DNA of 48,665 nucleotides, from IMG/VR virus record IMGVR_UViG_3300012913_000003, positions 1 through 48,665 of that record, one strand, 5' to 3'. Under the pieces are notes generated by a model that saw nothing but the letters and a program-made list of their open reading frames with translations, was not told where the DNA came from and did not search any database. The first letter of the stretch is position 1. Each line of letters opens with the position of its first letter. Origin of the DNA: a virus. Its lineage: Duplodnaviria; Caudoviricetes. Below are positions 2,095 through 38,069 of this stretch, piece after piece. The position numbers were made by a program, and so were the translations under genes.

Positions 2095-2103
2095 GGGAGA
2101 CCC

Positions 2104-2352: not shown

Positions 2353-2551
2353 GCTATTCCGGCTGGTAGGCGACGAGGACTGCGGCGTCGGCATCGACTG
2401 CCGGGCCTGCGACCGGGGTGGTGCGCCGATCGCCTACTACGCCGGCCTCGACCAGCCGTACCCGACCGACGCGGCGCCCGACGTCATCCCGGTCGACACC
2501 ATCGATGCGCTACTGGCCGCCGCTGCCGAGCACGCCGCCGCCCACACGTGA
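2336..2551 (+). CDS. Hypothetical protein (CxxC)
   Basis: RBS GGAGG before ATG; fills the gap before the portal gene. Confidence 0.5.
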   Translation: MDSLDELFRLVGDEDCGVGIDCRACDRGGAPIAYYAGLDQPYPTDAAPDVIPVDTIDALLAAAAEHAAAHT

Positions 2552-2568
2552 CAGGAACGGGGTGACCG

Positions 2569-3936
2569 GTGGGACTGCTCGAGCGTATTGCCGCAGCCCG
2601 CGGTCGCGAGGAGAGCCGGTTCGCGGCTGACCAGTGGCTCAGCGAGTACCTGATCCCGTCATCGTTCTCCTACGGCGGCAACAGCTACCCGTTCGGCATG
2701 ACGCAGACCCTGGCCGGCCAGCGCGTTCAGCAGGTCTCGGCGACCCTGCCCGGCTATGCGGCCGCCCTGCGCGCCTGCCCGCCCGCGTTCGCCGCCCAGA
2801 TGGTCCGTGCGCTGGTCCTCAGCCAGGCCCGGTTCGTGTTCCGCAACCGTCCCGGCTCGCGGACGCCGCGGCGCACGTTCGGCACCAGTGAGCTGTCGAT
2901 CCTGGAGACGCCGTGGCCGAACGCGACGACCGGCGACCTGCTGGCCCGCATGGAGTGGCACGCCGGGCTGACTGGTAACGCGTTCGTGGTCCGGCAGCCG
3001 AACCGGCTGCGTGTGCTGCGACCGGACTGGACGGCCGTCATCTACGGCTCGCAGTCCGAGCCGGACGACCCGGCGGGCGCGCTCGACGGCGAGGTCCTCG
3101 GCTACGTCTACCAGAACGGCGGCATCGGCTCCGGTCGCGGCAAGCCCCAGACGATGCTCCCCGCCGACGTGGCGCACTGGTCGCCGCTGCCTGACCCGGA
3201 GCGGCCCGACATGGGCCAGTCCTGGGTGACCGCGGCGCTCGCCGACATCCAGGGCGACCGGGCGGCGACGCAGCACAAGCTGAAGTTCTTCGAGAACGGC
3301 GCGACGCCGAACATGGTGGTCAAGGGGATCACCGCGGCGAACCGCGAGCAGTTCGACGAGATCGTCGCGTCGATGGAGGAGAACCACGCCGGCGTGGCGA
3401 ACGCGTACAAGACCCTCTACCTGGTCGCGGGCGCTGACGCCACGGTGGTCGGCGCGGATCTGAAGCAGCTCGACTTCAAGGCCACGCAGGGCGCCGGCGA
3501 GACCCGGATCGCGATGCTGAGCCGGGTGCCGGCTCCGCTGCTGGGCATCTCGGAGGGCCTGGCCGGGTCGTCGCTGAACGCGGGCAACTTCGGTATGGCC
3601 CGGCGCATCTTCGCCGACTCGTGGATCTACCCGAGCCTGCAGGACCTGTGCTCGGCGGTCTCGTCGATCATCCGCGTGCCGGGTGACGCCGAGCTGTGGT
3701 TCGACACGGCCGACATGCCGCTGCTGCGCGAGGACGCCAAGGACGCCGCCGAGATCACGTCGGTGCAGGCCTCGACGATCGGCCAGCTGGTCCGCGACGG
3801 CTACACCTCCGACTCGGCCAAGGCGGCCGTGGTCGCGAACGACATGAACCTCCTGGTCCACACCGGCCTCGTCAGCGTGCAGCTCCAGGTGCCCGGCTCC
3901 ACTCCGACCTCTGCCCCGACAGGAGGCCAAGCGTGA
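2569..3936 (+). CDS. Portal protein (HK97-like)
   Basis: Position after terL; GNAFV, KFFENGATP and GETRIA...VP motifs. Confidence 0.9.
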   Translation: MGLLERIAAARGREESRFAADQWLSEYLIPSSFSYGGNSYPFGMTQTLAGQRVQQVSATLPGYAAALRACPPAFAAQMVRALVLSQARFVFRNRPGSRTPRRTFGTSELSILETPWPNATTGDLLARMEWHAGLTGNAFVVRQPNRLRVLRPDWTAVIYGSQSEPDDPAGALDGEVLGYVYQNGGIGSGRGKPQTMLPADVAHWSPLPDPERPDMGQSWVTAALADIQGDRAATQHKLKFFENGATPNMVVKGITAANREQFDEIVASMEENHAGVANAYKTLYLVAGADATVVGADLKQLDFKATQGAGETRIAMLSRVPAPLLGISEGLAGSSLNAGNFGMARRIFADSWIYPSLQDLCSAVSSIIRVPGDAELWFDTADMPLLREDAKDAAEITSVQASTIGQLVRDGYTSDSAKAAVVANDMNLLVHTGLVSVQLQVPGSTPTSAPTGGQA

Positions 3937-4727: not shown

Positions 4728-6292
4728 ACATCCGTCGTAAGCCGGCCCTGCTCGGCTACCGCAAGAACGGCGCCCCGATCTGGCTGGCCCAGGGCGGCGC
4801 CCCCGACCTCACCGAACAGGTCGCCCGCGGCCTGGAAGGCAAGGACGTCGCCGACATCAAGGACGGCGTCACCCCCGACGAGCTGCGGGGCATGACCCCC
4901 GACCAGCTCGTCCAGTACGTCCAGATCCTGGACGCGCACCTGCGCTCGATCCACCAGGACGAGGACACCGGCGAGCTGCGCGAGAAGACCCCGGAGGAGC
5001 GCAAGGCGTTCGACTTCGGCTTGAAGCTGCGCGACCTCGCGAACAAGAAGATCGAGGAACACCGCAGCATCCAGGAGATCTTCGGCCGCAAGCCGAAGGC
5101 CGTCCGGCAGGCCCTCGCGAACATCCGCCACGGTCTCGACGACAACGCCACCGTGACCCGGATGACCATCCCCGAGGCCCGCGATGCGGCCCTGCGGGTG
5201 CTCGACGACCGGAACTCCGTGCGGCACCTCGCCACCGACCAGGTCGACCAGGTCGAGAAGGCGATCCGCCGCAACACCGACACCGCCCGCCGGATCCTCG
5301 TCACCGAGAACGAGGGCTACCGCACGGCGTGGATGAAGCTGGTCTCCGAGCCGCACCCGATGCTCACCGACGACGAGCGCAACGCCGTGCTCGCCTACAA
5401 CGAGTACCGGGCCATGGCCGAGGGTTCGACCACCGCCGGCGGCTTCGGCATCCCGGTGTTCATCGACCCGTCGATCATCCTGACGGCGCAGGGCTCCGGG
5501 AACCCGTTCCTGAGCCTGGCCAAGCAGGTCGACGTCAACACGAACATGTGGAAGGGCGTCAGCTCGGCCGGCGTCTCCTGGGCGTTCCAGTCCGAGGGCG
5601 TGGCGACCACCGACAACTCGCCGACCCTGGCGCAGCCGTCGGTGCAGGTCTACATGGCCCGCGGCTTCATCCCGTACTCGATCGAGGTCGGGCAGGACTA
5701 TCCGGGCTTCGCCGACGAGATGCAGACCCTGCTGGCGTCCGGCTACGACGAGCTGCTCGTCGACAAGTTCACCCGCGGCTCCGGCACGGGCGAGCCGTTC
5801 GGCATCGTGACCGCGCTGTCGGCCAACACCAACGTCCGGGTCCGGGTCCAGACGAACGGCGCGTTCGGCCAGGCCGACCCGTACACGGTGTGGAAGGCGC
5901 TGCCGCAGCGGTTCCGCCGCCAGGCGAACTGGATGATGAGCGTCGGCGTGAACAACGCGGTCCGCCAGCTCGGCACCGCGAACGTGTTCCACGCCTTCAC
6001 CGACAACCTGCCGGCCGAGTGGGCTGACACCCTGTTCGGTAAGGGCGTCTACGAGTCGCCGTACATGAACGACGTGACGTCGTCCACATCGGCTACCACG
6101 GAGCTCGCGGTCGTCGGCGACTGGTCGAACTACGTGATCGCCCGTCGCGGCGGCATGTCCGTCGAGCTGGTGCCGCAGCTGTTCGACGTGACCAACAACC
6201 GGCCGACCGGCCAGCGCGGCTGGTTCGCGTACGCCCGGATCGGCGGCAACTCGGTCAACGACCTGGGCTTCCGCCTGCTGGTCAACACCTGA
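4724..6292 (+). CDS. Major capsid protein (HK97 fold, N-terminal delta/scaffold region)
   Basis: Coiled N-terminus, AGGFGIP, GSGTGEPFGI, VVGDWSNYVI, GQRGWFAYARIGG. Confidence 0.92.
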   Translation: MNIRRKPALLGYRKNGAPIWLAQGGAPDLTEQVARGLEGKDVADIKDGVTPDELRGMTPDQLVQYVQILDAHLRSIHQDEDTGELREKTPEERKAFDFGLKLRDLANKKIEEHRSIQEIFGRKPKAVRQALANIRHGLDDNATVTRMTIPEARDAALRVLDDRNSVRHLATDQVDQVEKAIRRNTDTARRILVTENEGYRTAWMKLVSEPHPMLTDDERNAVLAYNEYRAMAEGSTTAGGFGIPVFIDPSIILTAQGSGNPFLSLAKQVDVNTNMWKGVSSAGVSWAFQSEGVATTDNSPTLAQPSVQVYMARGFIPYSIEVGQDYPGFADEMQTLLASGYDELLVDKFTRGSGTGEPFGIVTALSANTNVRVRVQTNGAFGQADPYTVWKALPQRFRRQANWMMSVGVNNAVRQLGTANVFHAFTDNLPAEWADTLFGKGVYESPYMNDVTSSTSATTELAVVGDWSNYVIARRGGMSVELVPQLFDVTNNRPTGQRGWFAYARIGGNSVNDLGFRLLVNT

Positions 6293-6690: not shown

Positions 6691-6921
6691 ATGGACATCG
6701 TCTACGCGACCGCGAATTCGTCGGTTGCCACCCCCGAGGGCGGCCAGGTCCTGGTCCGGGCCGGCTCGCACTGGCCGGCGAACGATCCGGTGGTGCTGGC
6801 TCAGCCGTCGCTGTTCTCGACGGACGCCCGCCACGGCCTGAACTTCAGCTCGCCGCCTGAACCCGATCCGGTGGTGGAGCAGGCGACGGCGGCGCCGGGC
6901 GAGCGGCGGGCCCGGCGGTGA
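6691..6921 (+). CDS. Small protein with EQATAAPGERR motif
   Basis: RBS GGAGAGG; stop overlaps the next start. Confidence 0.7.
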   Translation: MDIVYATANSSVATPEGGQVLVRAGSHWPANDPVVLAQPSLFSTDARHGLNFSSPPEPDPVVEQATAAPGERRARR

Positions 6922-7706
6922 TCGAGCGCAAGGATTCGGTCGCGGTCGCCTACGTCTGCGACAACACGGTCATCTACTCGTGGGTTCGCAGCATGTTCGA
7001 GCTGCTCGAGTACGACACGGCGACGTCGGGCCGGGTGCACGCCGGCGGCCACATCGCGATGCGCTGCGGCACGGACGGCCTGGTCGCCGCCCGCAACGAG
7101 GCGGTCCGGAACTTCCTGAAGTACGAGCGGGCGGACTGGCTGTTCTGGGTCGACACCGACATGGGCTTCGCTCCGGACACGGTGGACCGGCTGCTCGAGG
7201 CGGCCGACCCGGTGGAGCGGCCGATCGTGGGCGGGCTGTGCTTCTCGCAGCGCGAGGACGAGGCCGACCAGCTCGGTGGCTTCCGGTGCACGGCGACGCC
7301 GACGGTGTTCGACTGGGCGCAGGTGGAGGGCCAGTACGGCTGGCAGGTTCGCTGGAACTACGCCCCGAACGCGCTGACGCAGGTCGGCGGCACCGGCGCG
7401 GCGTGCATCCTGATCCACCGGTCGGTGTTCGAGAAGATCGAGGCCAAGCACGGCCAGGTCTGGTATGACCGGGTGCCGAACACGACCACCGGTCAGCTCA
7501 TCGGCGAGGATCTGTCGTTCTGCCTGCGCGCGGGCGCGCTTCAGATCCCGATCTACGTGCACACCGGCGTCCCGACGACCCACTTCAAGCACCTGTGGCT
7601 GGGCGAGCAGGACTACTGGCAGCAGGTCGCGCTGCGCTCGGCGCAGGACGAGATCTCCGCCCAGCTGTCGGCCGCGGATTCCGAGGCCGAGCCGGTGGCG
7701 TCATGA
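6918..7706 (+). CDS. Glycosyltransferase (GT-A/GT2-like)
   Basis: ARNEAV...DWLFWVDTDM (DxD motif), GAACILIHRSVF, GEDLSFC. Confidence 0.85.
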   Translation: MIERKDSVAVAYVCDNTVIYSWVRSMFELLEYDTATSGRVHAGGHIAMRCGTDGLVAARNEAVRNFLKYERADWLFWVDTDMGFAPDTVDRLLEAADPVERPIVGGLCFSQREDEADQLGGFRCTATPTVFDWAQVEGQYGWQVRWNYAPNALTQVGGTGAACILIHRSVFEKIEAKHGQVWYDRVPNTTTGQLIGEDLSFCLRAGALQIPIYVHTGVPTTHFKHLWLGEQDYWQQVALRSAQDEISAQLSAADSEAEPVAS

Positions 7707-8386
7707 CCGACCTCGTGGTGATCGTGCCGTCCCGCGGCCGGCCGCACGCCGCGGTCGAGCTGGCCGGGGCGTTTGGGGAGACCAAGGCCACCTCGCGGCT
7801 GGTGTTCGCGGTCGATGACGACGACCCGACCCGCAACGACTACCTGGCTGCCCTCGAGGCCTACCCGTGGACGACCGTGCACTTCGGCCCGTCGCCGTCG
7901 ACGATGGTCAAGGCGCTGAACGGCGTCGCGTCGTTGTACGCGAACGAAGCATTCGCGCTCGGCTTCATGGGCGACGACCACCGCCCCCGGACGATGCACT
8001 GGGACGCCATGTACCTCACGGCGCTCGACCAGCTCGGCACCGGGATCGTTTACGGCAACGACCTGCTCCAGGGCGAGAACATCCCGACCCAGGTCGCCAT
8101 GACCGCGGACATCGTCCGGGCGGTCGGCCACATGGCGCCGCCGGCCCTGACGCACCTGTATGTCGACAACTACTGGAAGGACCTCGGCGAGAAGGCCGGG
8201 TGCCTGCGGTATCTGCCGAGCGTGGTGGTCGAGCACATGCACCCGCTGGCCCACAAGGCCGCGTGGGACGAGGGCTACGCCCGGGTCAACGACCGGTCGA
8301 TGTACCAGCACGACGGCGACGCCTACGCCGACTACGCCGGCTCGCACCTGGCCGACGACGTCGAGACGGTGCGGGCGCTGCGGTGA
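7703..8386 (+). CDS. Glycosyltransferase (GT-A/GT2-like)
   Basis: N-terminal VVIVPSRGRP, FAVDDDD, GFMGDDH, HLYVDN, VEHMHP. Confidence 0.8.
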   Translation: MTDLVVIVPSRGRPHAAVELAGAFGETKATSRLVFAVDDDDPTRNDYLAALEAYPWTTVHFGPSPSTMVKALNGVASLYANEAFALGFMGDDHRPRTMHWDAMYLTALDQLGTGIVYGNDLLQGENIPTQVAMTADIVRAVGHMAPPALTHLYVDNYWKDLGEKAGCLRYLPSVVVEHMHPLAHKAAWDEGYARVNDRSMYQHDGDAYADYAGSHLADDVETVRALR

Positions 8387-25089: not shown

Positions 25090-26793
25090 CTACTCCGCGC
25101 CGACCCACGCCTTCAGGTCCTCGACGGCGTAGGCGTTCACCCCCCGCTTCTCCCCGACCGGTGCCGGCACCGTCCCCACCTTCCGCTGCAACCGCTTCTT
25201 CGTGGCCTCGTACGACCAGGGCAGCACACCGGCGTCGATGGCGTCCCGCAAGGTCATCATGTCCCCGTCCCCAGGGACATTGCTGCTCAGGCCGCTATCA
25301 AGCCCCGCCGGGACTTCCGCGAGACCCCTTGCCTGCTTTGCGGTCAAATACGCAACTTGTACCTCAGTGGCCGTTCCGCCGATCACAACCTGCCAACGGC
25401 CCAACGTGCGACTCGCACGCGGCATCGCAGCCTCCGGCACGAGCATCTTCCACGCGTTCGTCGTGTACCGCGCCAGGCACCGGATGCCGAAGTTCTCCCG
25501 CGCCTCGGGCCCGCCGATCGCCCGCGCCGTCAGCATCTGCGCGATCGCCAGCACGTTGACCAGCGCGCTGCGGCCCATGAACAGGATGTCGGCCAGCGCG
25601 GCGATCGCCGGCGACTTCTTCGGATCGGACTTCTCCCGCGTCTCCGCCCAGTAGTTCGTGAGCTGCCCGATCGTGGCGTTCAGCTCCTCGCAGATCACGA
25701 AGTACCGCTCGCCCGGGACCCAGTCGTCGTCCTCGTACAGCGCCATGTCGTTGCGCTCGTTCGCCAGGCCGGCCAGCCGGATCAGCGCGTCGTGCATCTG
25801 GTGCGGCTTCGTGCAGTAGTCCACGCCCGGCAGCCCCACCGCCCAGCGGTGCGAACCCTTCCGGTCCAGGATGACCACCCGGCCGCCGCGCCGGAGCACC
25901 TGCACCGCGATGAGCTGGGCGAGGACGCTCTTGCCCGCGCCCGAGCCGGCCGAGAGCGCGATGTGCGGGCTGTCGTCCTTGAGCGAGATGATGACCGGCA
26001 CGTCGCCCGGCCCCTGGCCGACGTAGAACTCCCACTCCTGCAGCCGGTCCAGGTGCCGCATGACGTGCTCAAGGTTCACCTGGGCGGGCGGCCGCTTGCG
26101 CACGGTCCAGCGGGCGCGGACCCGGCGGCCGACCTGGTTCCACGACTCGACCAGGTCGGACACGGGGATCTTGCTGGTGATGATGCTGCTCACGAGCTGC
26201 CGCTGCTCGGCGGTCAGGTACGGCGTCTCGACCAGCAGCTCGATCCGCGGGCCCAGCACCTCACCCGGCCGCCGGAACACGACCAGCTTCGACGTGGCGG
26301 GCCGCGCCCAGCCCTGCACCCGCCACACCCCGCGCTGCACCCGCTCCGGCAGCCAGCGCAGCACTGGCTCCACCCGCTCGCCGTACCAGCGCCGCGCCGC
26401 CACCTCCGCCGGGGACAGCGGCTTCGCCAGCCGCGGCGTGAGCTGACCGAGCGCCGGGTCCACCAGCAGCCGTACCCGGATGTCGTCCAGGCCGAGTGCG
26501 GGCGACATCGCGGCCAGCGTCGGCGCGATGTACTCCCCGACGAACCGGGACCGCCGGGCGAACCGCGGCCCGCGCCACACGGCCAGCAGGACCAGGGCGC
26601 CGACGACAACCTGGGCGGCCGTTTGGTCGAACATCGCCACCACGACGGCCGGGGGCAGGCCGAGCCGCCACGCCTGCCGCTGCCACCCGGCCAGCCGGGC
26701 CGGGCCGGGCCGCAGGTAAGGGTGCCCGGTCCGGCCGTCGATGGGCCGGCCGGAGGCGTACCGGTAGAGCCAGTGCTTGCCGTCGTCGGCCAC
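25090..26793 (-). CDS. TraB/Tra-like FtsK-SpoIIIE family DNA translocase (actinomycete plasmid transfer type)
   Basis: N-terminal TM helices; Walker A SAGSGAGKS; VVILDRK; Walker B FVICEELN; ARENFGIRCLARY arginine-finger region; small C-terminal wHTH-like domain. Confidence 0.8.
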   Translation of the reverse strand: MADDGKHWLYRYASGRPIDGRTGHPYLRPGPARLAGWQRQAWRLGLPPAVVVAMFDQTAAQVVVGALVLLAVWRGPRFARRSRFVGEYIAPTLAAMSPALGLDDIRVRLLVDPALGQLTPRLAKPLSPAEVAARRWYGERVEPVLRWLPERVQRGVWRVQGWARPATSKLVVFRRPGEVLGPRIELLVETPYLTAEQRQLVSSIITSKIPVSDLVESWNQVGRRVRARWTVRKRPPAQVNLEHVMRHLDRLQEWEFYVGQGPGDVPVIISLKDDSPHIALSAGSGAGKSVLAQLIAVQVLRRGGRVVILDRKGSHRWAVGLPGVDYCTKPHQMHDALIRLAGLANERNDMALYEDDDWVPGERYFVICEELNATIGQLTNYWAETREKSDPKKSPAIAALADILFMGRSALVNVLAIAQMLTARAIGGPEARENFGIRCLARYTTNAWKMLVPEAAMPRASRTLGRWQVVIGGTATEVQVAYLTAKQARGLAEVPAGLDSGLSSNVPGDGDMMTLRDAIDAGVLPWSYEATKKRLQRKVGTVPAPVGEKRGVNAYAVEDLKAWVGAE

Positions 26794-26898
26794 GTCGTCC
26801 TTTCAAGGTGGTGGCGCAGGCCGCGTCGACTGCGACCTGCGCCCCTCTTACCTGCTACTTCGGGTCGTTGTCGAAGATCCCGGTGCCCTTCTTCGCCA

Positions 26899-27024
26899 TC
26901 AGCCGTTGCCGCCCTTCGCCTGCTCGTTGGCCAGCCGTCGGTAGGCCTCCTGGCCGGCCTGCTTGGCCGTCTTGCCCTCCTGCCGCAGCTCCTTCTTGAC
27001 CTGCTCGTACTTTTTGTCCGCCAT
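26899..27024 (-). CDS. Small charged protein (41 aa) of the transfer operon
   Basis: Not in the ORF track. RBS GAGGAGG; MADKKYEQVKKELRQEGKTAKQAGQEAYRRLANEQAKGGNG. Confidence 0.6.
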   Translation of the reverse strand: MADKKYEQVKKELRQEGKTAKQAGQEAYRRLANEQAKGGNG

Positions 27025-27039
27025 CTCGTTCACCTCCTC

Positions 27040-27837
27040 TCAGCTCTCCTCTGTGTGGACGAGGTGCCGCAGCGCGGCGCCCATGCCGAGCACGGCAACC
27101 GGGACGCCGGACACGGCGAGCGTGATCCACCACGGCGCCGAGGTCATGCCCGCCGCGATCATCAGGTGGTACGCCGCCTGACCTGCGAAGCCGAGGACCA
27201 GCGAGCCCATCGCCGACCACCGGGCGAACCTGCGCGCCTTGGCCGGCACCGCCCCGGACATCCACACGTTCAGCGCGTACGCGGCGTAGGCCTCCAGGCC
27301 GATGGGCAGGGTGATCGCCGTGTTGAGCTGGGCGTCGTCCCAGATTCCCGGCAGCGGGTGGACGATCCCGAACCCGGTCAGCCGGCCGAGGTCGACCCAC
27401 CCGGACCAGATGGCGACGAACGCGCCGAACGCGATCAGCACCACCGGCCACGACCGCGGCCGCCGACGGGCCGGGTGCTTCCCGGGTGCTTCCGAGATCA
27501 CCTCGGCGGGCAGCGGGGCGGCAGGCTCCAAGACCATCGGGACCTGGTCGGCGTTGACGGTCGGGAAGCGGACCCGCGGGACCGGCCCCGATCCCGGGTG
27601 GCGCTTCCGAGACGTCAACCGGCGCAGCGTCTTCCGGGCGTCCCGGCGCCGCTGCACGCCAGCCTCGCGGGCCTCGTCGCCGAGACGCGAAAGCACCTCG
27701 TTGACGACCGGCCACCCCTTCGACAGGTGCCGCTGAAGCTCCCGCTTCGACGGCAGCCGGCCGCCGGCGGTCAGCTCGCGGCCCCTCGCGAGGAGGTCGG
27801 CGTCGACCTCGACACGGCCGTTGTCGGTGATCGTCAT
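27040..27837 (-). CDS. Spd-like plasmid spread membrane protein with N-terminal HTH-like region
   Basis: Four TM helices; WSGWVDLGRLTGFG and LPIGLEAYAAYAL; N-terminal LPSKRELQRHLSKGW. Confidence 0.65.
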   Translation of the reverse strand: MTITDNGRVEVDADLLARGRELTAGGRLPSKRELQRHLSKGWPVVNEVLSRLGDEAREAGVQRRRDARKTLRRLTSRKRHPGSGPVPRVRFPTVNADQVPMVLEPAAPLPAEVISEAPGKHPARRRPRSWPVVLIAFGAFVAIWSGWVDLGRLTGFGIVHPLPGIWDDAQLNTAITLPIGLEAYAAYALNVWMSGAVPAKARRFARWSAMGSLVLGFAGQAAYHLMIAAGMTSAPWWITLAVSGVPVAVLGMGAALRHLVHTEES

Positions 27838-28944: not shown

Positions 28945-29151
28945 TCAGCTCTCCGGCTTCTCGGCGATCTCGGGCCGGTGCTCGCGGATCCAGCGTTCGA
29001 CGTCGGTGGAGCGCCACACCTTGCCGCGGGCGAGCTGCCGCCACGGGTCGGGGAAGTCCTTGCGGCCCACGATGATGTAGGCGCGCTGGGTGGAGACGCC
29101 GAGGCGTTCGCGGATCTCCTGCGCGCCCATCGGGAACAGCTCCTCGGCCAT
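28945..29151 (-). CDS. AlpA/excisionase-like HTH DNA-binding protein
   Basis: MGAQEIRERLGVSTQR...DFPDP...KVWRSTDVERW. Confidence 0.75.
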   Translation of the reverse strand: MAEELFPMGAQEIRERLGVSTQRAYIIVGRKDFPDPWRQLARGKVWRSTDVERWIREHRPEIAEKPES

Positions 29152-29673: not shown

Positions 29674-30005
29674 ACGGCCCGGTGATGGACTTCTTCGCCA
29701 CCCCGGCGCCCCTCGGGCGCAAGGGTCAGGTGCGGTCTCTCGGCGACCGGAACCGGCGGGTGCTGGCCAAGCGGGCCGGCGACCCGAAGGGCTCGGCTGA
29801 GGCGTGCGAGGACCTGGAGCGCGCGCACCCTGGCATCGTCGTCTGCTGGTTCCCGCGCAACACCTGCCGCGGCTTCGAGCGCGATCCTGGCTTCTACGCC
29901 TGGCCGGCCGGCACCGATCCGGGTTGGATGTCGACGACCGGCTGGGTACGGCGGCACGAGTGGTACGGCGCGACGGCCGAGGAGCTGGCCGTACAGCTTC
30001 CCTAG
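29670..30005 (+). CDS. Hypothetical protein
   Basis: GTGA overlap with the upstream gene. Confidence 0.5.
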   Translation: MNGPVMDFFATPAPLGRKGQVRSLGDRNRRVLAKRAGDPKGSAEACEDLERAHPGIVVCWFPRNTCRGFERDPGFYAWPAGTDPGWMSTTGWVRRHEWYGATAEELAVQLP

Positions 30006-30199
30006 TCCTCGGCCGGGTCGGGCCGGTGCACGGCCGCCCATGCTTCGACGTCGTCGCGGTGCCAGACCCTGCCCATGGCGAGCACGGCGACCGGCCGCGG
30101 GAAGTCGGGACGGCGGACGATGGAGTCGACCCGCTGGGCGCTGACGCCGCCGAAGCGCACGCGGAGCTCGGCCGTGCCCATGAGCGGAATCGGGTCCAT
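30002..30199 (-). CDS. AlpA/excisionase-like HTH protein (paralog of 28945-29151)
   Basis: MGTAELRVRFGGVSAQR...DFPRP...RVWHRDDVEAW. Confidence 0.72.
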   Translation of the reverse strand: MDPIPLMGTAELRVRFGGVSAQRVDSIVRRPDFPRPVAVLAMGRVWHRDDVEAWAAVHRPDPAED

Positions 30200-30456: not shown

Positions 30457-30792
30457 ATGCTCAACGCGGTCAACGCAATCATCTATCTACCGATCGGCAT
30501 AGCCCTCGACAGCGTCTACTCCAGACAGTGCATGCAGCACGTCGTCCGCCGCGGCTACGAGCTGCTCACCATCGTCCAGCAGTGGTCCGCCGTCGAGCAG
30601 CTCCTGAAGGCCGGCCGCGCCCAGGTCGTCGTCTTCGCCAGCCGGGATCACTGGAGCGACGACTTCTCGCCGCGGATCGAGTTCGTCGGCGAAGACACCG
30701 TCGACCTGGTCCGCATCGGCCGCTCCCGGCCACGCAACGAGCGCCGGACGGGCGACGACCGCAGTCGCCGCCCGGGCCGCATCACCCGCTGA
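30457..30792 (+). CDS. Hypothetical protein
   Basis: RBS GGGGAGG; converges on the recombinase gene. Confidence 0.5.
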   Translation: MLNAVNAIIYLPIGIALDSVYSRQCMQHVVRRGYELLTIVQQWSAVEQLLKAGRAQVVVFASRDHWSDDFSPRIEFVGEDTVDLVRIGRSRPRNERRTGDDRSRRPGRITR

Positions 30793-30799
30793 AGACCGA

Positions 30800-31627
30800 T
30801 CACACCGCGACCGGAAGGCTGGCCACAGCGGCCGCCATCCGGTCGCGATTGACCTCTACGTATCTCCTGGTGGTGCCCGGTTCGGAGTGGCCGAGTAGCT
30901 CCTGCACCGCGACCAGATCCCGGGTGCTGTCGTAGGTCATCGTCGCGAACCGGTGCCGCAGGGTGTGCATGCTGATCCCCCGGAAGCCGAGCTTCGCAAT
31001 CCGGTAGTTCCCGCGGTGCGCTACCTGCGCCGCCGTCAGCCGGCGGCCGGCATCGTCGACCGCGATCGGGCCGGACGGCAGACCCTTGACCGCCTCCCAG
31101 ATCAGCGGATGGCACGGCACGAACCGCTCCCGGTCACCCTTGCCGTGCAGCCAGATCCGCTCGGCCGTGATGTCATCGCGGTTGAGCCGGCTGATCTCGA
31201 TGCACCGCAACCCCCCGAATGCGGCCAGCAACACCCAGACCAGGAACGGCATCGGGATCCGCCCCCGGATCTCGGCCAGGATCCGCTCCGGCGCCGGCTT
31301 CGGCTTGCCCTTCGTCGGCTTGATCTCCGGCAGCTCCGCGGTCGCGTCGAAGTCCAGCCGGGGCCGCTTGGGATCGGTCGCCCACCGGCCGAACCCCCGC
31401 AGGATCCGCACGTAGTGCGAGCGGGTCGTCTTGCCGCGCTCGCCGCCGCCGCGTTTGGCCGGCGACGTGGAGAACAGCCAGTCCTCGAGCTCCTCGGTGC
31501 TGGCCGAGTACAGCCCGTACGGCAGCTCCCGGTCGGCCTGGCGCAGGGTGCGGACGTAGGTGGCGATCGTGTTGGGGGAGCGGTCGAGCCGGCGCAGGTG
31601 CCGCTCGTAGTCGTCGATCAGGTCCAC
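30800..31627 (-). CDS. int: Tyrosine recombinase/integrase (short, XerC/D-like)
   Basis: Catalytic R (GLRCIEI), K (HGKG), HxxR (HTLRHRFAT), H (LLGHS) and Y (TTRRY). Confidence 0.92.
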   Translation of the reverse strand: MDLIDDYERHLRRLDRSPNTIATYVRTLRQADRELPYGLYSASTEELEDWLFSTSPAKRGGGERGKTTRSHYVRILRGFGRWATDPKRPRLDFDATAELPEIKPTKGKPKPAPERILAEIRGRIPMPFLVWVLLAAFGGLRCIEISRLNRDDITAERIWLHGKGDRERFVPCHPLIWEAVKGLPSGPIAVDDAGRRLTAAQVAHRGNYRIAKLGFRGISMHTLRHRFATMTYDSTRDLVAVQELLGHSEPGTTRRYVEVNRDRMAAAVASLPVAV

Positions 31628-31629
31628 GG

Positions 31630-31872
31630 TCAGGCTTCCTCTCCGGCGAGCGCTTCGGCCAGGGCGTCGAGCACGACGAGCGTGCCGACGCGGGCCTGGC
31701 GATCGGTGATGGCGGGGCTGGCGTGCAGCGCCTCGATCTGGTCGACGGCGACGGCGTAGGCGGCTTCCGGTGCGCGGTTGCGCATCCGGTCGGCGAGGGT
31801 GCCGACGAGCTGGTGTCGGGCGCTGGCGCGGTCCATCGTCCGAGCGTTGTCCGGTGTGCGGGATCTGGGCAT
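31630..31872 (-). CDS. Hypothetical protein
   Basis: Lies between repressor and integrase on the same strand. Confidence 0.55.
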   Translation of the reverse strand: MPRSRTPDNARTMDRASARHQLVGTLADRMRNRAPEAAYAVAVDQIEALHASPAITDRQARVGTLVVLDALAEALAGEEA

Positions 31873-31883
31873 CGGTCGCGGAC

Positions 31884-32339
31884 CTATCGCTGGGTGGGCC
31901 GGTCGCCGGGGCGGACCGGGTTGGGCCGCCGCTTGCGTGCCGGAACGGCTGAGACGGGGCGGGTGTGGCCGGGCTTCGGCTGCCTGATCGGCCGAGGCGG
32001 CTTGCGGGATTCCGGCACCGGGCTCACCCCTTCGGGTCGGCCGACGAGAGCTTGTCCTATCGTCACGAGCCGCTCGGCGGGCGCTTGATCAAAATCCCGC
32101 CCCGACCCCCTGTCCTTGGGGATCAGGTCGGCGATGTCGACGTCGAGGACCTGGGCGATTGCCTCCAGGTCGTCAAGGTCGAATGCGACTGCCCCGTTGA
32201 GCCGCCGGGAGAAGTACGGCTGGCTCTTGCCGATCTGTTTGGCGAGCTGGACGCCGCTCATCCGGCGTCTGGCCAGCAGTGCTCGGACCTCTTCGGCGAC
32301 TGCTGGCCCTAGCCGCCTCTGGGTTGACCCCTCATCCAT
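31884..32339 (-). CDS. Immunity repressor (XRE/Cro-CI HTH)
   Basis: VRALLARRRMSGVQLAKQIGKSQPYFSRRLNG HTH; divergent from a Cro-like paralog. Confidence 0.8.
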   Translation of the reverse strand: MDEGSTQRRLGPAVAEEVRALLARRRMSGVQLAKQIGKSQPYFSRRLNGAVAFDLDDLEAIAQVLDVDIADLIPKDRGSGRDFDQAPAERLVTIGQALVGRPEGVSPVPESRKPPRPIRQPKPGHTRPVSAVPARKRRPNPVRPGDRPTQR

Positions 32340-32480
32340 GCGTTACATGTTGGTCGGTCACCGACCATGAACGCAAGCCTTAGACGGTGCCTAATCGACG
32401 TAATCCGATGCGGTAGACCTCTGACCTGGCAGTAGTCTTTTTCCTTGACTCCTATGCGCTAAGCGACTAACTTAGTCGGC
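32340..32480. promoter_or_regulatory. Lysis/lysogeny switch: divergent, probably leaderless promoters with palindromic operators
   Basis: Rightward TTGACT(32445)-N17-TAACTT(32468), 7 nt before the cro ATG. Leftward TTGCGT-N18-CAACAT, 7 nt before the repressor ATG. Palindromes TGGTCGGT-C-ACCGACCA (32351-32367) and CGACTAA-C-TTAGTCG (32464-32478). Confidence 0.75.
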
Positions 32481-32711
32481 ATGCCAGCATCCCCCTTCAC
32501 AGAACTCGTCGCGGAGAACGTCCGCGCCGAGATGGGCCGCGCTCGCGTCTCCGGCGTTCAGCTGGCTGCGCTCATCGGGAAGACCCACCCGTACATGTCC
32601 CGCCGCCTGACCGGAAAAGTCGCTTTCGACACGGACGACCTGACCGCGATCAGCAGCGCGCTCGGCATCAACGTTCTCGACCTCATGCGGGCACCGGAGC
32701 GCGCGGCATGA
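32481..32711 (+). CDS. Cro-like HTH regulator
   Basis: VRAEMGRARVSGVQLAALIGKTHPYMSRRLTG; clear paralog of the repressor HTH. Confidence 0.8.
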   Translation: MPASPFTELVAENVRAEMGRARVSGVQLAALIGKTHPYMSRRLTGKVAFDTDDLTAISSALGINVLDLMRAPERAA

Positions 32712-33223
32712 GCCGGGACTACGTCGCGGAGATGCGCGCGGTCATCGACGCCGAGGCGACCGGGACGTACGTGCCCGGCATCGTCGCGGCCCACATCGTC
32801 GAGAAGCTCCGCGAGACCGACGGCGAGTTGCTCTCCGGCTGGCTCGATGCGCAGGCCGAGACGTTCATCCGGCAGGCGATCAACAACCGCGACAACTCCC
32901 AGCGCACGGCGGCTCGGCACTCGCGCCCTCGGTCGGTGTTCGCGGACGACGCCGAGGCGGCCGAGGCGGGTGAGCCGGAGCGGTTGGCCGGCTGGCTCGG
33001 CACGCGGTTCACGGTCGAGGACGGCTCACGCAAGCCGCTGGCTGAGCTGGCGCACGACGAGCTGCTCTTCGTCGCCGACGCGTACGAATCCCGGGCTCGC
33101 GAGAACAAGCTCACGGCCGCCTTCGCCAAGGCCATCGCCCGAAAGGTCAAGACCGGCGTGGTCGGCGATCACTTCACGGATGACCAGCTCAGCACGATGT
33201 GGGACTCGCTGAGCGGGCGTTGA
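32708..33223 (+). CDS. Hypothetical helical protein, candidate accessory gene of the RAMP/array locus
   Basis: ATGA overlap with cro; ends immediately before the repeat array. Confidence 0.7.
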   Translation: MSRDYVAEMRAVIDAEATGTYVPGIVAAHIVEKLRETDGELLSGWLDAQAETFIRQAINNRDNSQRTAARHSRPRSVFADDAEAAEAGEPERLAGWLGTRFTVEDGSRKPLAELAHDELLFVADAYESRARENKLTAAFAKAIARKVKTGVVGDHFTDDQLSTMWDSLSGR

Positions 33224-33228
33224 CGGAT

Positions 33229-33956
33229 GACAACCCACCCCGAGGCATACCGGCCCTCGCCTTCCCGTCCCGACATGCCTTTCCTGCCCCCGGCCGTCCT
33301 CGCCACCCCGACCCAGCCCAGCGCGACTATCCAAGTCCTCCCCTGCCAGGCCCAATCCGCCCCGACTGCCCTTCCCATGCCTGCCCTTCCCGCCTCGACC
33401 CAGGTCGACTCCCCACTCCTTCCCAGCTCCACGCGTCCCGCCCCGACTCCCCATCCCGTCGCACCCCCCGACCGCGTCTCTCCCGACTTCCCTCCCCTTG
33501 CCCCGGCCCTCCAATCCTTCCGACTACCCATCCCCGCCCCAGGCCTCGCGACCCCGCCCGGCCCATACCGACTACCCGACAACCCGGCCCGCAGCTCGCC
33601 CCATCAAGCCCGATCCCTTCCCCGTCCGACTGCCCATCTCAGCCCAGATCTGCCCGGCTCGGCTCACCTCCCTCCCGACTTCCCAGGTCTCGCCAAGGCT
33701 CCACTTCCCGCTCCGACGCCCCCGCCCTTCCCCGCCCAGCTCGTCTCGCCGCGCCCCACCCCGCTCCGACTTCCCGACCCACCTGCAACCCATCCCCGGT
33801 CCATCCCAGGCCCTCCCGTCCCATCCCGCGCCGACTTCCCGCCGCAACCCGACCCTGGCCCTTCCGCCTCCGACTGCCCTCGCCTACCCCATCGCCGCCC
33901 CCGCCAAGCCGACTACCCAGAGATCCCCTCCCCATCCCGACCCCTCCGACTACCCC
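33229..33956. ncRNA. Array of about 16 pentamer-periodic units (CCGACTNCCC-bounded, NN-CCC modules); putative guide-RNA (VIPR-like) array
   Basis: CGAC delimiters at 33271, 33324, 33363, 33406, 33444, 33484, 33521, 33569, 33627, 33676, 33714, 33767, 33832, 33871, 33910 and 33947. 5-nt periodicity between them. Abuts a RAMP-like gene. Confidence 0.7.
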
Positions 33957-33969
33957 AAGGAGACATGAC

Positions 33970-34641
33970 GTGACCAGCGTGTTTGCCAAATTCCAGCCCG
34001 ACATGTTCCCGTACCGCTTCTCCGGCGAGCTGCTCGTCGGCTGCATCGCCGGTGGCACCCCGACCGACCCGAACGTCGCCGAGGGCTGGATCAAGACCAA
34101 GCTCGGCGCGAAGGACGACCTGCTCCGCGAGATGGTCGCCGAGACCATGGTCGAGCGCGGCGTCACCGCCGACGAGGCCGCCAAGGTCGTCGACAGCCTC
34201 AAGCACCTCAACGGCTTCAAGCGTGACCCCGAGCACGGCCTCTACATCGAGGGCCGCCAGCTCAAGGCCGCGCTCAAGGAGGCCGCCTCCTGCGCCGTCG
34301 CCGCCGGCAAGCTCAACGCCCGCGGCTGGGGCAAGACGAACAAGGGCCTGCTGTCCTACCTCGCCGAGCACGTCTTCGTCGTCGAGGACCGGCTCTACCT
34401 CGGTGTGGCCGAGCCGAGCGGCATCAACCAGCGCTTCGTCCACACCTTCCGCGGCTCCGGCATCCAGTACGAGGAGTACGTCGAGGACGCCAAGATCTCG
34501 TTCACGGTCATGGCCGACCACGACTTCTCCGAGAAGGAGTGGGCCGCGATCTGGACCTCCGGCGAGCAGCAGGGCATCGGAGCTTCCCGCTCGCAGGGCT
34601 ACGGCCGGTACGAGGTCACCCGCTGGGACCGGCAGGCATGA
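33970..34641 (+). CDS. Stand-alone Cas7/RAMP-like protein (Vipr-like)
   Basis: RBS AAGGAG with GTG at 33970. LYIEGRQLKAALKEAA resembles the RAMP YIPGSSLKGALR motif; C-terminal G-loop GIGASRSQGYGRYEV. Confidence 0.8.
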   Translation: MTSVFAKFQPDMFPYRFSGELLVGCIAGGTPTDPNVAEGWIKTKLGAKDDLLREMVAETMVERGVTADEAAKVVDSLKHLNGFKRDPEHGLYIEGRQLKAALKEAASCAVAAGKLNARGWGKTNKGLLSYLAEHVFVVEDRLYLGVAEPSGINQRFVHTFRGSGIQYEEYVEDAKISFTVMADHDFSEKEWAAIWTSGEQQGIGASRSQGYGRYEVTRWDRQA

Positions 34642-34967
34642 CCACCGCCTCGACGTCCGTCCCGCCGGGCACGCCCCCACCGTCCCCGCCGCCCGGCGGC
34701 CCGACCCACCCGGGGCCCACGCACCCGCCGTCGAAGTACGCCGCCGTCTTCGACCTGCTGGTCGCTGAGATCGGCGCCTCGCTGCGCCACCTGCTCGCGC
34801 AGGGCGTGGACGGCAGGGCTGTGCTCGCCGCCCGCTTGGCCGCGCTCGGCGGCGAAGGCGGCTCGGGTTTCGCCCTGCCGGTGACGCCCCGGTTCTCGAT
34901 GGGCGCGTACCCCGACGGGTCGCCCATCCCGCCCGGCACGCCGCCCACGCCGCCGCCCGCTGATTAG
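34638..34967 (+). CDS. Pro-rich hypothetical protein
   Basis: ATGA overlap with the RAMP gene; Pro-rich termini around a helical core. Confidence 0.5.
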   Translation: MTTASTSVPPGTPPPSPPPGGPTHPGPTHPPSKYAAVFDLLVAEIGASLRHLLAQGVDGRAVLAARLAALGGEGGSGFALPVTPRFSMGAYPDGSPIPPGTPPTPPPAD

Positions 34968-35002
34968 CAAGACGTTCGCAACGGATTGGCAAGGAGAAGC
35001 GC

Positions 35003-35077
35003 ATGGACCTCATCCCGATCGGCAGCAAGCCCCCGCCGCCGCCGCCGCCCCCGCCGCCGAAGCCCGACCCGAAGTGA
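35003..35077 (+). CDS. 24-aa polyproline peptide MDLIPIGSK(P10)KPDPK
   Basis: Strong RBS AAGGAG upstream; below the ORF-track cutoff. Confidence 0.45.
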   Translation: MDLIPIGSKPPPPPPPPPPKPDPK

Positions 35078-35156
35078 AAGACGGCGGGCCACCCGGATTC
35101 GCCCCAGGTCGCCCGCCAGATCACCGGATCAACCCTCCACCAAGAAAGGCCATCCG

Positions 35157-36068
35157 ATGAACGATCCGAGCGTACGCAAGGACAAGAGCGGGGACCAGCT
35201 CGCGCCCGGTGACTGGCTCGCCCCGGGCGAGCTGCTCGACCGGTTTGCCGAGGTGCTGTTCGCGCTGCCGTACCCGGGCAACGGCGGCACGCACGTCCAC
35301 CTGGTCGCCCGGGCGCTGTCCGCAGTCACGCCGTACTCCGACGTCGTAGGCGGGAACACGCTGTTCAAGCTGGCGTCGGAGGCGGACCTGGCCGAGTGGC
35401 GCGAGGCAGCGAAGCGCGCCCAGAAGATCGCCGACATCCGGACCTACGCGGACTGGCTGGAGGCCAACCCCAGCGAGCCGCTCGGCTACGGATTCGGCGG
35501 CCAGGCCGACGTCCCCGGCGAGAACACGGCCGAGGCCGTGGCCAAGGTGCGTGAGTTCGCTGCGCGGTACGGCGCCGATGTTCGCGAGTTGGACGCCTGC
35601 ACGTCGGCACGCCTGCACTTCGGCTCCGTCGAGCACGTGGTGATCGCCTGGCACCGCGAGGGCCGCCCGACCGAGTCCGCGCCGGAGCCGGCCGAGCACC
35701 AGGAGGTGCGCGGCTGGAAGGGCGACGTGGTCGACGGCTACGGCGTGGAGTGCGCCTGCGGCGTGACCTACAACGGCTTCGACACCCCGGCCGAGGCCTC
35801 GAAGTTCCTGGCGCAGCACATCGCCGACCCGACGGGCCAGGACTACGGCCGCAACGACACCGCCGAGGCCGACGACCCGACGCCGGTCTCCCCGGCCCGG
35901 GTGCCGCTGCACACCGGCGAGATGGTCGGGACCGCCCGCGACGCCCGCCTGGTCGACGCCGACGCGCCGGAGGGCCGGGTGATCGGCCGGGCCGCGGTCG
36001 AGTCCGGTGACGAGTCCGGCCCGACGGTCCAGTTCGGCAGCGCCCACTGGCAGGGCGGTGCCCCCTGA
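35157..36068 (+). CDS. Hypothetical protein
   Basis: RBS GAAAGG with ATG at 35157. Confidence 0.65.
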   Translation: MNDPSVRKDKSGDQLAPGDWLAPGELLDRFAEVLFALPYPGNGGTHVHLVARALSAVTPYSDVVGGNTLFKLASEADLAEWREAAKRAQKIADIRTYADWLEANPSEPLGYGFGGQADVPGENTAEAVAKVREFAARYGADVRELDACTSARLHFGSVEHVVIAWHREGRPTESAPEPAEHQEVRGWKGDVVDGYGVECACGVTYNGFDTPAEASKFLAQHIADPTGQDYGRNDTAEADDPTPVSPARVPLHTGEMVGTARDARLVDADAPEGRVIGRAAVESGDESGPTVQFGSAHWQGGAP

Positions 36069-36316
36069 TGGCCGCCGACGACCCGTGCCGCGCCGGCTAC
36101 CTGGCGATCGCGACCGCGTTCTTCCGCAACGGCCCCGTCGAGCTGGACGAGCTGGCCTGCCCGCATCCGGCCGAGACGATCGCCACGGTGCGCGAGGTGT
36201 GGCCGGGCCTTGAGGCCGAGCTGCACGCGGCTCTGTGCCGGGGTCACGACCAGGCGTTGCAGGCGGCTGACGGCTACGTGAAGTCGATCCCGATCCGTCG
36301 CCGCGTCGCCACCTGA
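36068..36316 (+). CDS. Hypothetical Cys-containing protein
   Basis: TGATG overlap. Confidence 0.55.
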   Translation: MAADDPCRAGYLAIATAFFRNGPVELDELACPHPAETIATVREVWPGLEAELHAALCRGHDQALQAADGYVKSIPIRRRVAT

Positions 36317-36420
36317 GCTTCCGGCGCGGCGGCCCCCGTTCTACGTCGCGCCGGTTGGCCGGGCTCCCCAGGGCCCGGCAGGCCCGGGTCGTGGCCGCTA
36401 CTGCGGCCCGGGCCACCCGA

Positions 36421-36453
36421 ACTTCGCACCAACTTCGCACGCCGACTTCGCAC
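36421..36453 (+). repeat. Three direct repeats of ACTTCGCAC
   Basis: Copies at 36421, 36432 and 36445 in the intergenic region. Confidence 0.7.
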
Positions 36454-36467
36454 GAGGGACATAAGCC

Positions 36468-37043
36468 ATGAGCCACTTTTCGGTACTGATCTGCCTCCCC
36501 GGAAGCACACCGCTCGAAAAGCTCGACGACGAGATCGCCCGGCGCATGGAGCGCTGGGACGAGAACCGCGACGTCGAGTCCTACCGCGACTACGAGGAGG
36601 GCGGGGCCGAGGACTACTGGTGGGTCAGCTCCGTCCGCCGTGGCGCGAAGGAGGTCACCCCCATCGCCACGCCGTGGCCCGACTTCGTGAGCCTCGCGCA
36701 GCTCGGCGACATCACGTGGGACGAGGCTCGTCGCCGCTACCGCGAGCAGCCCCGGATCGCGGCCGCGATGAAGCTCGACGAGCTGGCCTGGGGTGACTGC
36801 CCGGTCGTGCGGTTCATGTCCGGCCGCGAGGAGTACGTGGCCGAGGCCCGTAAGGGCGCGGTGCCCGGGTTCGCGCTGGTGACGCTCGACGAGGAGTGGA
36901 TCGCCCCCGGCCGCATGGGCTGGTTCGGCATGAGCAGCGACGGACCCGGCGAGCGCTCCGGCTACAACTCCGCCGTCAACGCCTACCTCGCGGACAAGCT
37001 CGCCGCCGACGACTTCGTGATCGCACTCGACTGCCACATCTGA
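36468..37043 (+). CDS. Hypothetical protein
   Basis: MSHFSVLI...W..PGRMGWFG...LDCHI; flanked by a 15-bp direct repeat. Confidence 0.7.
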   Translation: MSHFSVLICLPGSTPLEKLDDEIARRMERWDENRDVESYRDYEEGGAEDYWWVSSVRRGAKEVTPIATPWPDFVSLAQLGDITWDEARRRYREQPRIAAAMKLDELAWGDCPVVRFMSGREEYVAEARKGAVPGFALVTLDEEWIAPGRMGWFGMSSDGPGERSGYNSAVNAYLADKLAADDFVIALDCHI

Positions 37044-37059
37044 TCGAAGGACATAAGCC

Positions 37060-37473
37060 ATGACCGACGTTCTGCCTCCCCGCGAGCAGCTCACCCAGCC
37101 GATCGCCCACCGGTGGCTCACCACCAGCACCATCTATGACCCGAACAAGACCGCGATCCTCCGCCCCGACGAGACGCTGATCCTGAACGTCGCCGGTCCG
37201 GACACCTCCGGCGAGATCGTGCCGCTGATGCGCATGCTCCAGGACCCGCCGACCGGCACGCCCCCGCCGCTGCCCGTGCCGCCGGCCCCGGAGGTCGAGG
37301 CGTGGATGCGGCCCGGCCGCACGGTCGAGTACTTCCAGGACGGGCCGCCCGGTCACCGCGGCCTGCACCGCAAGCCGCCGTGGCCACGCTGGGCGGATCA
37401 GCTCATCGGCGCCGGGTGGGCGACGGTGGCGTGGTCGCTGCTGGGCCTGGCCATCCTGGCGGTGATCCGGTGA
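37060..37473 (+). CDS. Hypothetical protein with C-terminal TM helix
   Basis: Pro-rich with a hydrophobic C-terminus. Confidence 0.6.
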   Translation: MTDVLPPREQLTQPIAHRWLTTSTIYDPNKTAILRPDETLILNVAGPDTSGEIVPLMRMLQDPPTGTPPPLPVPPAPEVEAWMRPGRTVEYFQDGPPGHRGLHRKPPWPRWADQLIGAGWATVAWSLLGLAILAVIR

Positions 37474-38069
37474 CGCTCGATACCCGCGTTTACGTGATTG
37501 ACGAGATCGACCTGCGCGAGCTGTTCACCAAGTGCCAGTCGCTGCTCACTCCGTACGACGAGGCGCGGCGGACGCCCGACCAGCAGAAGTCCAAGCTCTA
37601 CCCCAAGTCGCTGGACAACGAGCCCATGCAGGATCTTCCCGCCTGGCTCATGGTCCACACCGGCGGCGAGCGGCCCCACCGGACGGCCGAGCAGGCTGCC
37701 GTCCACGACTACTGCAACCATCCGGACTCGCCCGACGCCGAGTACTACGAGGCCGACGCGCCGGTCTGCGTCAAGACCGAGCACGATCCGGTGTGCTGGT
37801 ACGAGATCAGCTGGGACACCGCGTACGGATATCGAGGCCCGGACGGCATGGGCTGCGGCGACCTGCACGCGCGGCTCGTCGCCGAGCTGGGTGCGTGGCT
37901 CGACGCCAGGGGCGTCCGCTGGAAGTGGAAGAACGAGTTCAGCGGCGAGGTGCACGAGGGCTACGAGCGGCTGATCGAGCTGGCTTCCGGTGGCTTTGAG
38001 GCAACGTCCTGGTTCCGGACCATGGTGGTTCCGGCCATCGCCGCGCGGGCCGCTGGCGGTGCGCTGTGA
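37470..38069 (+). CDS. Hypothetical protein
   Basis: GTGA overlap; WDTAYGY...CGDLHARLV...W.W.NEF.GE.H. Confidence 0.65.
   Translation: MTLDTRVYVIDEIDLRELFTKCQSLLTPYDEARRTPDQQKSKLYPKSLDNEPMQDLPAWLMVHTGGERPHRTAEQAAVHDYCNHPDSPDAEYYEADAPVCVKTEHDPVCWYEISWDTAYGYRGPDGMGCGDLHARLVAELGAWLDARGVRWKWKNEFSGEVHEGYERLIELASGGFEATSWFRTMVVPAIAARAAGGAL

Follow-up and report, generated by a model that had tools for sequence, protein, structure and literature searches.

An array of C-rich five-base modules in a phage genome is, in our judgement and with good confidence, a set of about 16 separate guide RNAs of the VIPR type. The guides likely lie on the C-rich strand of a cro-vap-vipr transcript and would be used by a protein with a predicted Cas7 fold against competing phages. 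VIPR is a CRISPR-like silencer described in 2026 (bioRxiv 10.64898/2026.04.26.720920), and the type II models named in the text of the two founding preprints are those of Escherichia phage SUSP1 and a Pseudomonas fulva prophage (10.64898/2026.04.26.720920; 10.64898/2026.04.26.720927). The stretch of DNA analysed here, termed the window, is a whole virus record of 48.7 kb (48,665 nucleotides) with head, tail, integrase and repressor genes. The nearest named relatives of this phage point to actinomycetes.

The array and its genomic setting

The array fills the gap between a vap-like gene and a vipr-like gene, which follow a cro-like gene on the same strand; the cI-like gene is divergent from this array-bearing operon (Table 1). 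Transcription of cro, vap, the array and vipr probably starts from the promoter-like site ahead of the cro-like gene. A promoter and terminator scan of positions 30500-37500 returned 0 sites, the site at 32445 having fallen under its threshold. Of 42 related loci with enough flanking sequence, 30 have a vap-like homolog upstream in the same orientation, and the neighbours of the vap-like protein in the Atlas are viral hypothetical proteins. In a set of 108 related loci that includes duplicates and the window twice, 88 have the C-rich array in the same orientation as vipr, and many of the others are short of flank. Elsewhere in the window, positions 25090-27837 (-) encode a TraB/FtsK-like ATPase (DUF87) that shares approximately 41-45% identity with plasmid proteins of Streptomyces and Pseudonocardia and adjoins a membrane protein with a winged-helix match, forming a plasmid-transfer-like cassette within a tailed phage. 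Also, two glycosyltransferase-like genes (6918-8386, +) are located inside the head module.

Table 1. Features of the array-bearing region, in window coordinates
Feature	Position	Strand	Remarks
Repressor-like HTH gene (cI-like)	31884..32339	-	Pfam HTH_26, HTH_31, HTH_3; PHROG transcriptional repressor
Promoter-like site	32445..32473	+	TTGACT, 17 nt, TAACTT; found by eye in the sequence, directly before the cro-like gene
Cro-like HTH gene	32481..32711	+	Pfam HTH below curated cut-offs; PHROG repressor, E 1e-15
Vap-like accessory gene	32708..33223	+	171 aa; no Pfam family
Putative guide array	33229..33956	+	16 GAC-opened units of 6-12 modules, one 8-nt stub, closing GAC module
Unit 1	33229..33271	+	43 nt, 8 modules; outside the count of the sequence-only reading
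Unit 2	33272..33324	+	10 modules; code common to L003:9844 and L041:16
Unit 4	33364..33406	+	8 modules; code common to L051:354
Unit 10	33628..33676	+	9 modules; code common to L051:241
Vipr-like gene	33970..34641	+	predicted stand-alone RAMP/Cas7 fold, 223 aa, G-rich loop

The predicted model of the vipr-like protein has a pLDDT of 80.9 and matches 82 PDB chains at E ≤ 0.001, all among the matches listed being type III or type VII CRISPR effectors. The closest solved folds are RNA-targeting Cas7/Csm3 proteins, and comparison with VIA gives a Z score of 9.6 and an rmsd of 4.0 Å over 137 residues. Judged from this model, the protein is a stand-alone RAMP fold outside a CRISPR locus. No cas family was found among 41 window proteins compared with PHROGs or among eight neighbours compared with Pfam, and Rfam gave 0 matches in the window. 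A CRISPR reading was rejected because the locus has no multi-gene cas operon, no repeat-spacer array and no duplicate units.

The vipr-like protein has no Pfam family and no PHROG family, and its own family comprises 1904 proteins at E ≤ 0.001. The profile of this family scores SUSP1 Vipr at a pairwise E of 7.8e-5, against 0.0094 for the best of 200 shuffles. The hhalign alignment to SUSP1 Vipr is weak (probability 15%, E 0.0017) and the residue mapping is tentative. In this weak alignment, the SUSP1 guanine readers D177, W178 and R138 correspond to A205, S206 and E168, and R179 of the pyrimidine pocket corresponds to R207, such that the G-loop reads A-S-R in the window Vipr and D-W-R in SUSP1. 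R207 is invariant in all 88 translations, of 94, in which the loop was found.

Grammar of the array

The C content of the array span (33229-33956) is 56% (406/728), and its autocorrelation peaks at a lag of five bases (z 5.6 against 1000 dinucleotide shuffles), as a reading of the sequence alone had predicted. In the same comparison, lag 10 has a z of 4.2 and lag 3 a z of -4.6, with dips at lags 2 and 3 and further peaks at 43 and 48. The presence of period 5 and the depletion of period 3 bear out the earlier argument that the periodicity does not arise from codon structure. The hexamer CCGACT occurs 12 times in the array, whereas shuffled sequences contain 0.73 copies on average and 4 at most.

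The sequence-only reading had listed sixteen CGAC delimiters. All 16 are present, but the span holds 24 CGAC tetramers in total, and the listed set consists of those that are in register. The form CGACT is taken by 14 of the 16, and the 15 spacings were recovered exactly as reported, as were the three units parsed in full (33522, 33715 and 33364). Seven of the 15 spacings equal 5n+3 (binomial p 0.018) and 13 are within 1 nt of it (p 0.027), a signal that is weak in the window alone; across 24 loci, 61 of 125 units follow the 5n+3 rule (p 6e-13).

Each unit consists of GAC followed by 6-12 modules, wherein a module is a free dinucleotide plus a triplet ending in C. Parsing of 84 distinct arrays on this basis gave 1029 units, mostly with 6-9 modules (mode 7). 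In 61 clean units the first two positions are flat, each base having a frequency of 0.23-0.27, and the triplet is C-rich with a near-fixed last base (C 0.62, 0.75 and 0.96 at its successive positions), which is the pattern originally described from the window. A parser-free profile built on 176 CGACT anchors yields last-position C frequencies of 0.96, 0.91, 0.91 and 0.90 in modules 1-4.

The earlier view that the array bears information and is not a satellite is upheld by several observations. No unit duplicates another within the array, and decoded units match conserved genes (see below). Furthermore, related phages keep the free bases while the triplets vary: among 259 module pairs from homologous units, dinucleotides are 90% identical and triplets 49%, with 19% expected at random. 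Similar codes recur between phages in 37 pairs, compared with 1 after shuffling. Matches extend from the first dinucleotide after one GAC to the last dinucleotide before the next, and on the evidence of these matches each GAC-bounded unit behaves as a single guide.

In the window, an additional delimiter, TGAC (GAC at 33229), opens a first unit whose length is an exact fit to eight modules, and the 58-nt unit is probably divided by the GAC at 33578, leaving a stub of 8 nt and a unit of 50 nt. The closing GAC module precedes the vipr ribosome-binding site. Eight-base stubs, each consisting of GAC and one module, recur between full units in the window (33570-33577) and in the arrays of L001 and L010. 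The first dinucleotide after GAC is skewed, with TA in 268 and TT in 154 of the 1029 units. This dinucleotide matches the target in the confident cases, none of which starts with TA, and 30 TA-starting guides searched with the first module dropped gave no strong match.

Decoding and targets

Units were decoded with the published VIPR rule, under which one base of the target is passed over between successive free dinucleotides. When 367 guides were compared with 0.75 Mb of sequence, a skip of 1 gave four perfect matches of at least eight modules, and skips of 0, 2 or 3 or shuffling gave 0. A comparison of 273 guides with 2.56 Mb produced 13 strong matches at skip 1, against 1-3 per shuffle round; two of the 13 (the portal and HTH loci) are circular, as these loci were fetched using the guide pattern. 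The other skips gave 1 (skip 0), 0 (skip 2) and 7 (skip 3) matches, and six of the seven at skip 3 are unmasked array copies, with one other. In a first local search, covering 59 guides and 0.49 Mb, the skip rules could not be told apart. A looped-out base in a 6-nt module was seen in L051:241 only.

In the window set, unit 33628 has an 18/18 match to one portal-gene site, encoding GVPPHLLMQ, in 103 viral records. The same nine codons are matched in 103/103 records, and the 54 distinct site sequences differ at skipped bases. The guide is complementary to the portal coding strand, and its skips fall on wobble bases. Moreover, 64 of the 103 sites also fit four bases of the L051 guide that lay outside the search pattern. 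Of 34 records that were looked up, 30 are 12-18 kb and four are 36-39 kb in length, and seven have direct terminal repeats. Three annotated records encode terminase, portal, protease, capsid, short tape measure and integrase, so the portal-site records appear to be compact tailed temperate elements. Loci L114-L216, L220-L239 and L283-L292 make up a large family of tailed temperate elements, high in GC and 12-18 kb long. The best listed matches of the mini-phage portal to GenBank phages are approximately 33% identical, and none reaches 60%.

A small gene of the window (28945-29151, -) has an 89% identical counterpart in L225, one of the targeted mini-phages, and positions 30002-30199 of the window also have a 55% match in that element. 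The 89% match suggests shared hosts and gene exchange. The window's own portal gave no alignment with the target portal. The portal code has 0 matches in 301 actinomycete-class genomes and is absent also from five other cellular genomes searched. A search of 20 mini-phages with one strict pattern found no orphan C-rich arrays.

Unit 33364 matches a repressor-like HTH gene (at LSAKHINQ) at 16/16, in antisense orientation and with wobble alignment, and this target rests on a single 87-kb provirus record. A search of 18 VIPR-phage records did not turn up its code, and five of the six matches of its consensus were set aside as copies of one out-of-phase site in contigs of 47% GC. For the remaining 14 of the 16 window units, no target exceeded the shuffles. 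Exact scans of viral sequence gave 0 matches for units 33272, 33715 and 33578, and the single match of unit 33522, in an AT-rich contig, was treated as chance. Three matches of the 33272 consensus are to unrelated proteins and look like chance, and a 17/20 match of this unit to a glycosyltransferase gene in L018 was rejected on the grounds that shuffles reach the same score. No target was found for unit 33229; its best score against vipr start regions, 12/16 in start-codon register, is a lead only. Against the window genome itself, guides of at least eight modules match at 75% or less (seven tested) and shorter guides at 79-92%, which is chance-like, and no window site is among the best matches of unit 33229.

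Guides of related phages add targets of several kinds. Four of them match the vipr genes of other phages perfectly, one at 24/24 and three at 16/16, at conserved stretches. The three owners compared score 21/24, 14/16 and 14/16 at the matched site of their own vipr (2-3 mismatches), and the vipr-targeting phages apparently escape their own guides by amino-acid change. Two of these four guides, L032:237 and L043:216, fit the window's own vipr without a mismatch, at 34059 and 34419 respectively. One guide has an 18/18 match to a Walker-A-like stretch of a 491-aa gene with no Pfam family, which is presumably terminase-like, and one has an 18/20 match to a capsid-adjacent gene of mini-phages. A single guide code is carried by six loci (L003:9577, L004:9733, L006:9407, L021:9733, L034:85 and L042:1460). 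Two of these six guides match an HTH protein with HELGHLVLH at 17/18, the best match being an HTH-protease gene in L294, and we take HELGHLVLH to be the motif of an ImmA/IrrE-type protease (HExxH).

We favour the view that these guides act on double-stranded DNA to silence transcription, the outcome measured for SUSP1 VIPR. A rival account, which we regard as doubtful, holds that the C-rich guides are aimed mainly at the mRNA of competing phages, or only at the non-template DNA strand. This account draws on the orientation of the strong matches, of which 11 of 13, at 10 distinct sites, are antisense and wobble-aligned, pairing with the coding strand, and 0 are sense, pairing with the template; the two classes are equally common in the searched database. 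All 10 coding-phase sites are antisense to the mRNA, whereas SUSP1 VIPR targets lie on both strands. A result of 10/10 has a p of 0.002 at even odds, and of about 0.03 if a bias toward U-first guides favours antisense by an estimated 70:30. Matches to Vipr proteins are likewise antisense for four of 651 guides and sense for 0, SUSP1 VIPR can bind single-stranded RNA in vitro, and the closest solved folds belong to RNA-targeting proteins as noted above.

Several considerations weigh against mRNA as the main target. A mixture fit over 352 units, which has little power, is near even for sense (0.26) and antisense (0.29), with 0.43 uniform, and the U-first bias of the guides alone favours antisense sites. 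The sample of matches is small and partly guide-selected. Also, full assembly of SUSP1 VIPR depends on a third strand of DNA, and it silences whichever strand is targeted. We treat the antisense bias as a lead toward non-template-strand or mRNA targeting, and not as a finding. A more sweeping proposal would recognize a widespread actinophage VIPR branch with a G-to-C flip of the code, GAC-separated and tail-less guides within the vap-vipr mRNA, swapped guanine readers and an aim at the coding strand only, whose complex may act on rival mRNA; taken whole, this seems to us unlikely. If true, an mRNA-acting, C-coded branch would link DNA-silencing VIPR to RNA-targeting CRISPR (type III and VII Cas7).

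Guide strand, proposed mechanism and known systems

Three indirect lines of evidence, namely the direction of the arrays relative to the genes, the setting of one inverted array and the exchanged guanine readers, make it quite likely that the guide RNA is the C-rich sense strand. The C-rich strand is the gene strand wherever the array lies, whether before vap, between the genes or after vipr; in SUSP1 it is the G-rich strand of the GGY arrays that coincides with the vipr strand. One array of about 1 kb (L094 3104-4180) is inverted and lies beyond a 13-bp hairpin that closes a convergent gene run; because this hairpin is terminator-like, the C-rich strand would follow transcription there too. 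In L005, sigma-70-like promoters on the C-rich strand precede two arrays by 20 and 8 nt, and a looser promoter scan overall, with 3/56 on the C side versus 2/84 on the G side, did not separate the strands. SUSP1 holds the third base of its triplet, a pyrimidine, in a purine-excluding pocket, and with the C-rich strand as the RNA the strict base of the window triplet would be a pyrimidine at this same position. At both L005 sites (6010-6060 and 7880-7930) the -35 boxes lie within a near-identical inverted repeat, a possible operator.

It is considerably less probable that the same system and code employ the G-rich antisense strand (GGG-NN) as the guide, i.e. that the array represents the published NNNGG VIPR variant. 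The reverse strand does read NNNGG-like, a repeat in the VIPR discovery preprint, and all tested VIPR guides are G-rich. The targets are of no help in choosing, since DNA targets are strand-blind and a double-stranded DNA target cannot tell the RNA strand. However, a G-rich guide would need an antisense promoter inside or beyond vipr as its source, and a separate one wherever the array moves, whereas the C-rich strand tracks gene direction, the inverted L094 array included. Mostly G would then occupy the pocket that is purine-excluding in SUSP1, and the guanine-reading residues appear lost in the tentative mapping. Furthermore, the G strand carries nine G-quadruplex motifs and folds far more strongly than the C strand (-259 versus -122 kcal/mol).

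That the span is a proline-rich protein (ORF 33227-33973, 248 aa), an N-terminal extension of vipr or low-complexity structural DNA is scarcely credible, for although open frames cross the array and the G strand could form quadruplexes, period 5 is present where period 3 is depleted, the ORF lacks phage third-position GC bias and a Pfam family, a stop-free frame is missing from 14 of 55 long arrays, dinucleotides are kept while triplets vary, and decoded units match other genes, and the protein-coding reading was rejected.

Taking the grammar, the RAMP fold of the model, the skip code and the target matches as observed, we infer the strand, processing, binding and silencing of the C-rich guides as follows. 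Vipr subunits would coat the C-rich transcript, one per five-base module, each gripping the triplet, with its strict C in the pyrimidine pocket, and presenting the dinucleotide. Its hold on the triplet would be looser at the two positions read as guanines in SUSP1, and an extra base in a triplet would be looped out. The three extra bases at GAC would break the five-base register, so that each unit would act alone, either by cutting or as a filament end. Competing phages would then be silenced through gapped pairing with their portal, regulator and vipr genes at wobble-tolerant sites.

The window system resembles VIPR type II in having a phage-borne stand-alone RAMP gene with one accessory gene, five-base modules composed of a fixed triplet and a free dinucleotide, a one-base wobble skip, and targets in competing phages, other VIPR systems included, with no self match. 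Judged from its sequence, the window has the broad VIPR features of a RAMP, an adjacent accessory gene, five-base repeats, a wobble skip and no self-targeting, and the resemblance of its protein to SUSP1 Vipr is weak. Unlike SUSP1 type II, which uses GGY, the gene-strand triplet is C-rich and its third base alone is strict; the reverse strand of the triplet gives G, not Y, at the third position and also departs from GGY. A VIPR variant distinct from GGY is what the first reading had guessed. The units are shorter than those of SUSP1 (mode 7 modules versus 9-16), and they abut, opened by GAC, with no structured 3′ tail where SUSP1 has an invariant tail; the C-rich RNA folds less than its shuffles. 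The position of the array between vap and vipr is a further difference from SUSP1 type II.

The text of the VIPR discovery preprint (10.64898/2026.04.26.720920) describes staggered vrRNA arrays and NNNGG, YNNNG and NNNNG variants. As described there, the staggered arrays share with the window head-to-tail guides, a register shift and a relaxed triplet, but they overlap by 1 nt, whereas in the window clade the register commonly shifts by +3 at GAC. The 667 VIPR systems published may include the window clade, possibly annotated on the other strand. A second preprint (bioRxiv 10.64898/2026.10.21.760802) presents 21 non-canonical VIPR-like clusters and names GAC/NN, CAC/NN, WGT/NN and TGH/NN triplets; like the window clade, these have period-5 arrays beside Vipr-like folds and non-GGY triplets. 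In its main text, ‘CCC’ and ‘Actino’ are absent at word start, and the cluster descriptions consulted come without punctuation, strand assignment or targets.

A third preprint (bioRxiv 10.64898/2026.10.15.759431) concerns a conflict between SUSP1 and satellites and reports solo vrRNAs that target vipr. Its text describes, as we find here, wobble-aligned guides that are aimed at vipr and at genes essential to small competing elements. The vipr-targeting guides there belong to VIPR-null phages, whereas those found here belong to VIPR-positive phages whose vipr differs at the site; also, the small targets here carry full head and tail modules. The RAMP fold with a G-rich loop is shared with the Cas7/Csm3 backbones of Class 1 CRISPR (types III and VII), from which the window system differs in having no cas operon, no repeat-spacer array and a gapped five-to-three code. 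No account of a C-rich, GAC-punctuated VIPR branch and its targets was found in the literature text consulted, and the figures or supplements of the preprints may cover the clade.

VIPR has been proposed as an ancestor of CRISPR effectors, and according to the text of the preprints the published biochemistry is for GGY-type guides only. The window clade suggests that the scaffold triplet can be rewritten along with the reading residues of the protein while the skip code is unchanged. If the antisense bias holds, DNA versus RNA targeting in early RAMPs would become directly testable. Pairs ready for testing are available, namely a short guide together with the portal site that it naturally matches, and guides directed at the vipr genes of rivals, and very short, tail-less guides would suit multiplexed gene silencing in actinomycetes. 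L242 (PP395641.1, labelled Microcystis phage Mae-JY09) could serve as a bench model. This record of a cultured phage is high in GC and carries, at 1950-3620, a candidate vap, a vipr of 34% identity and, following vipr, a C-rich GAC-punctuated array. The host label Microcystis looks odd given the base composition of this record.
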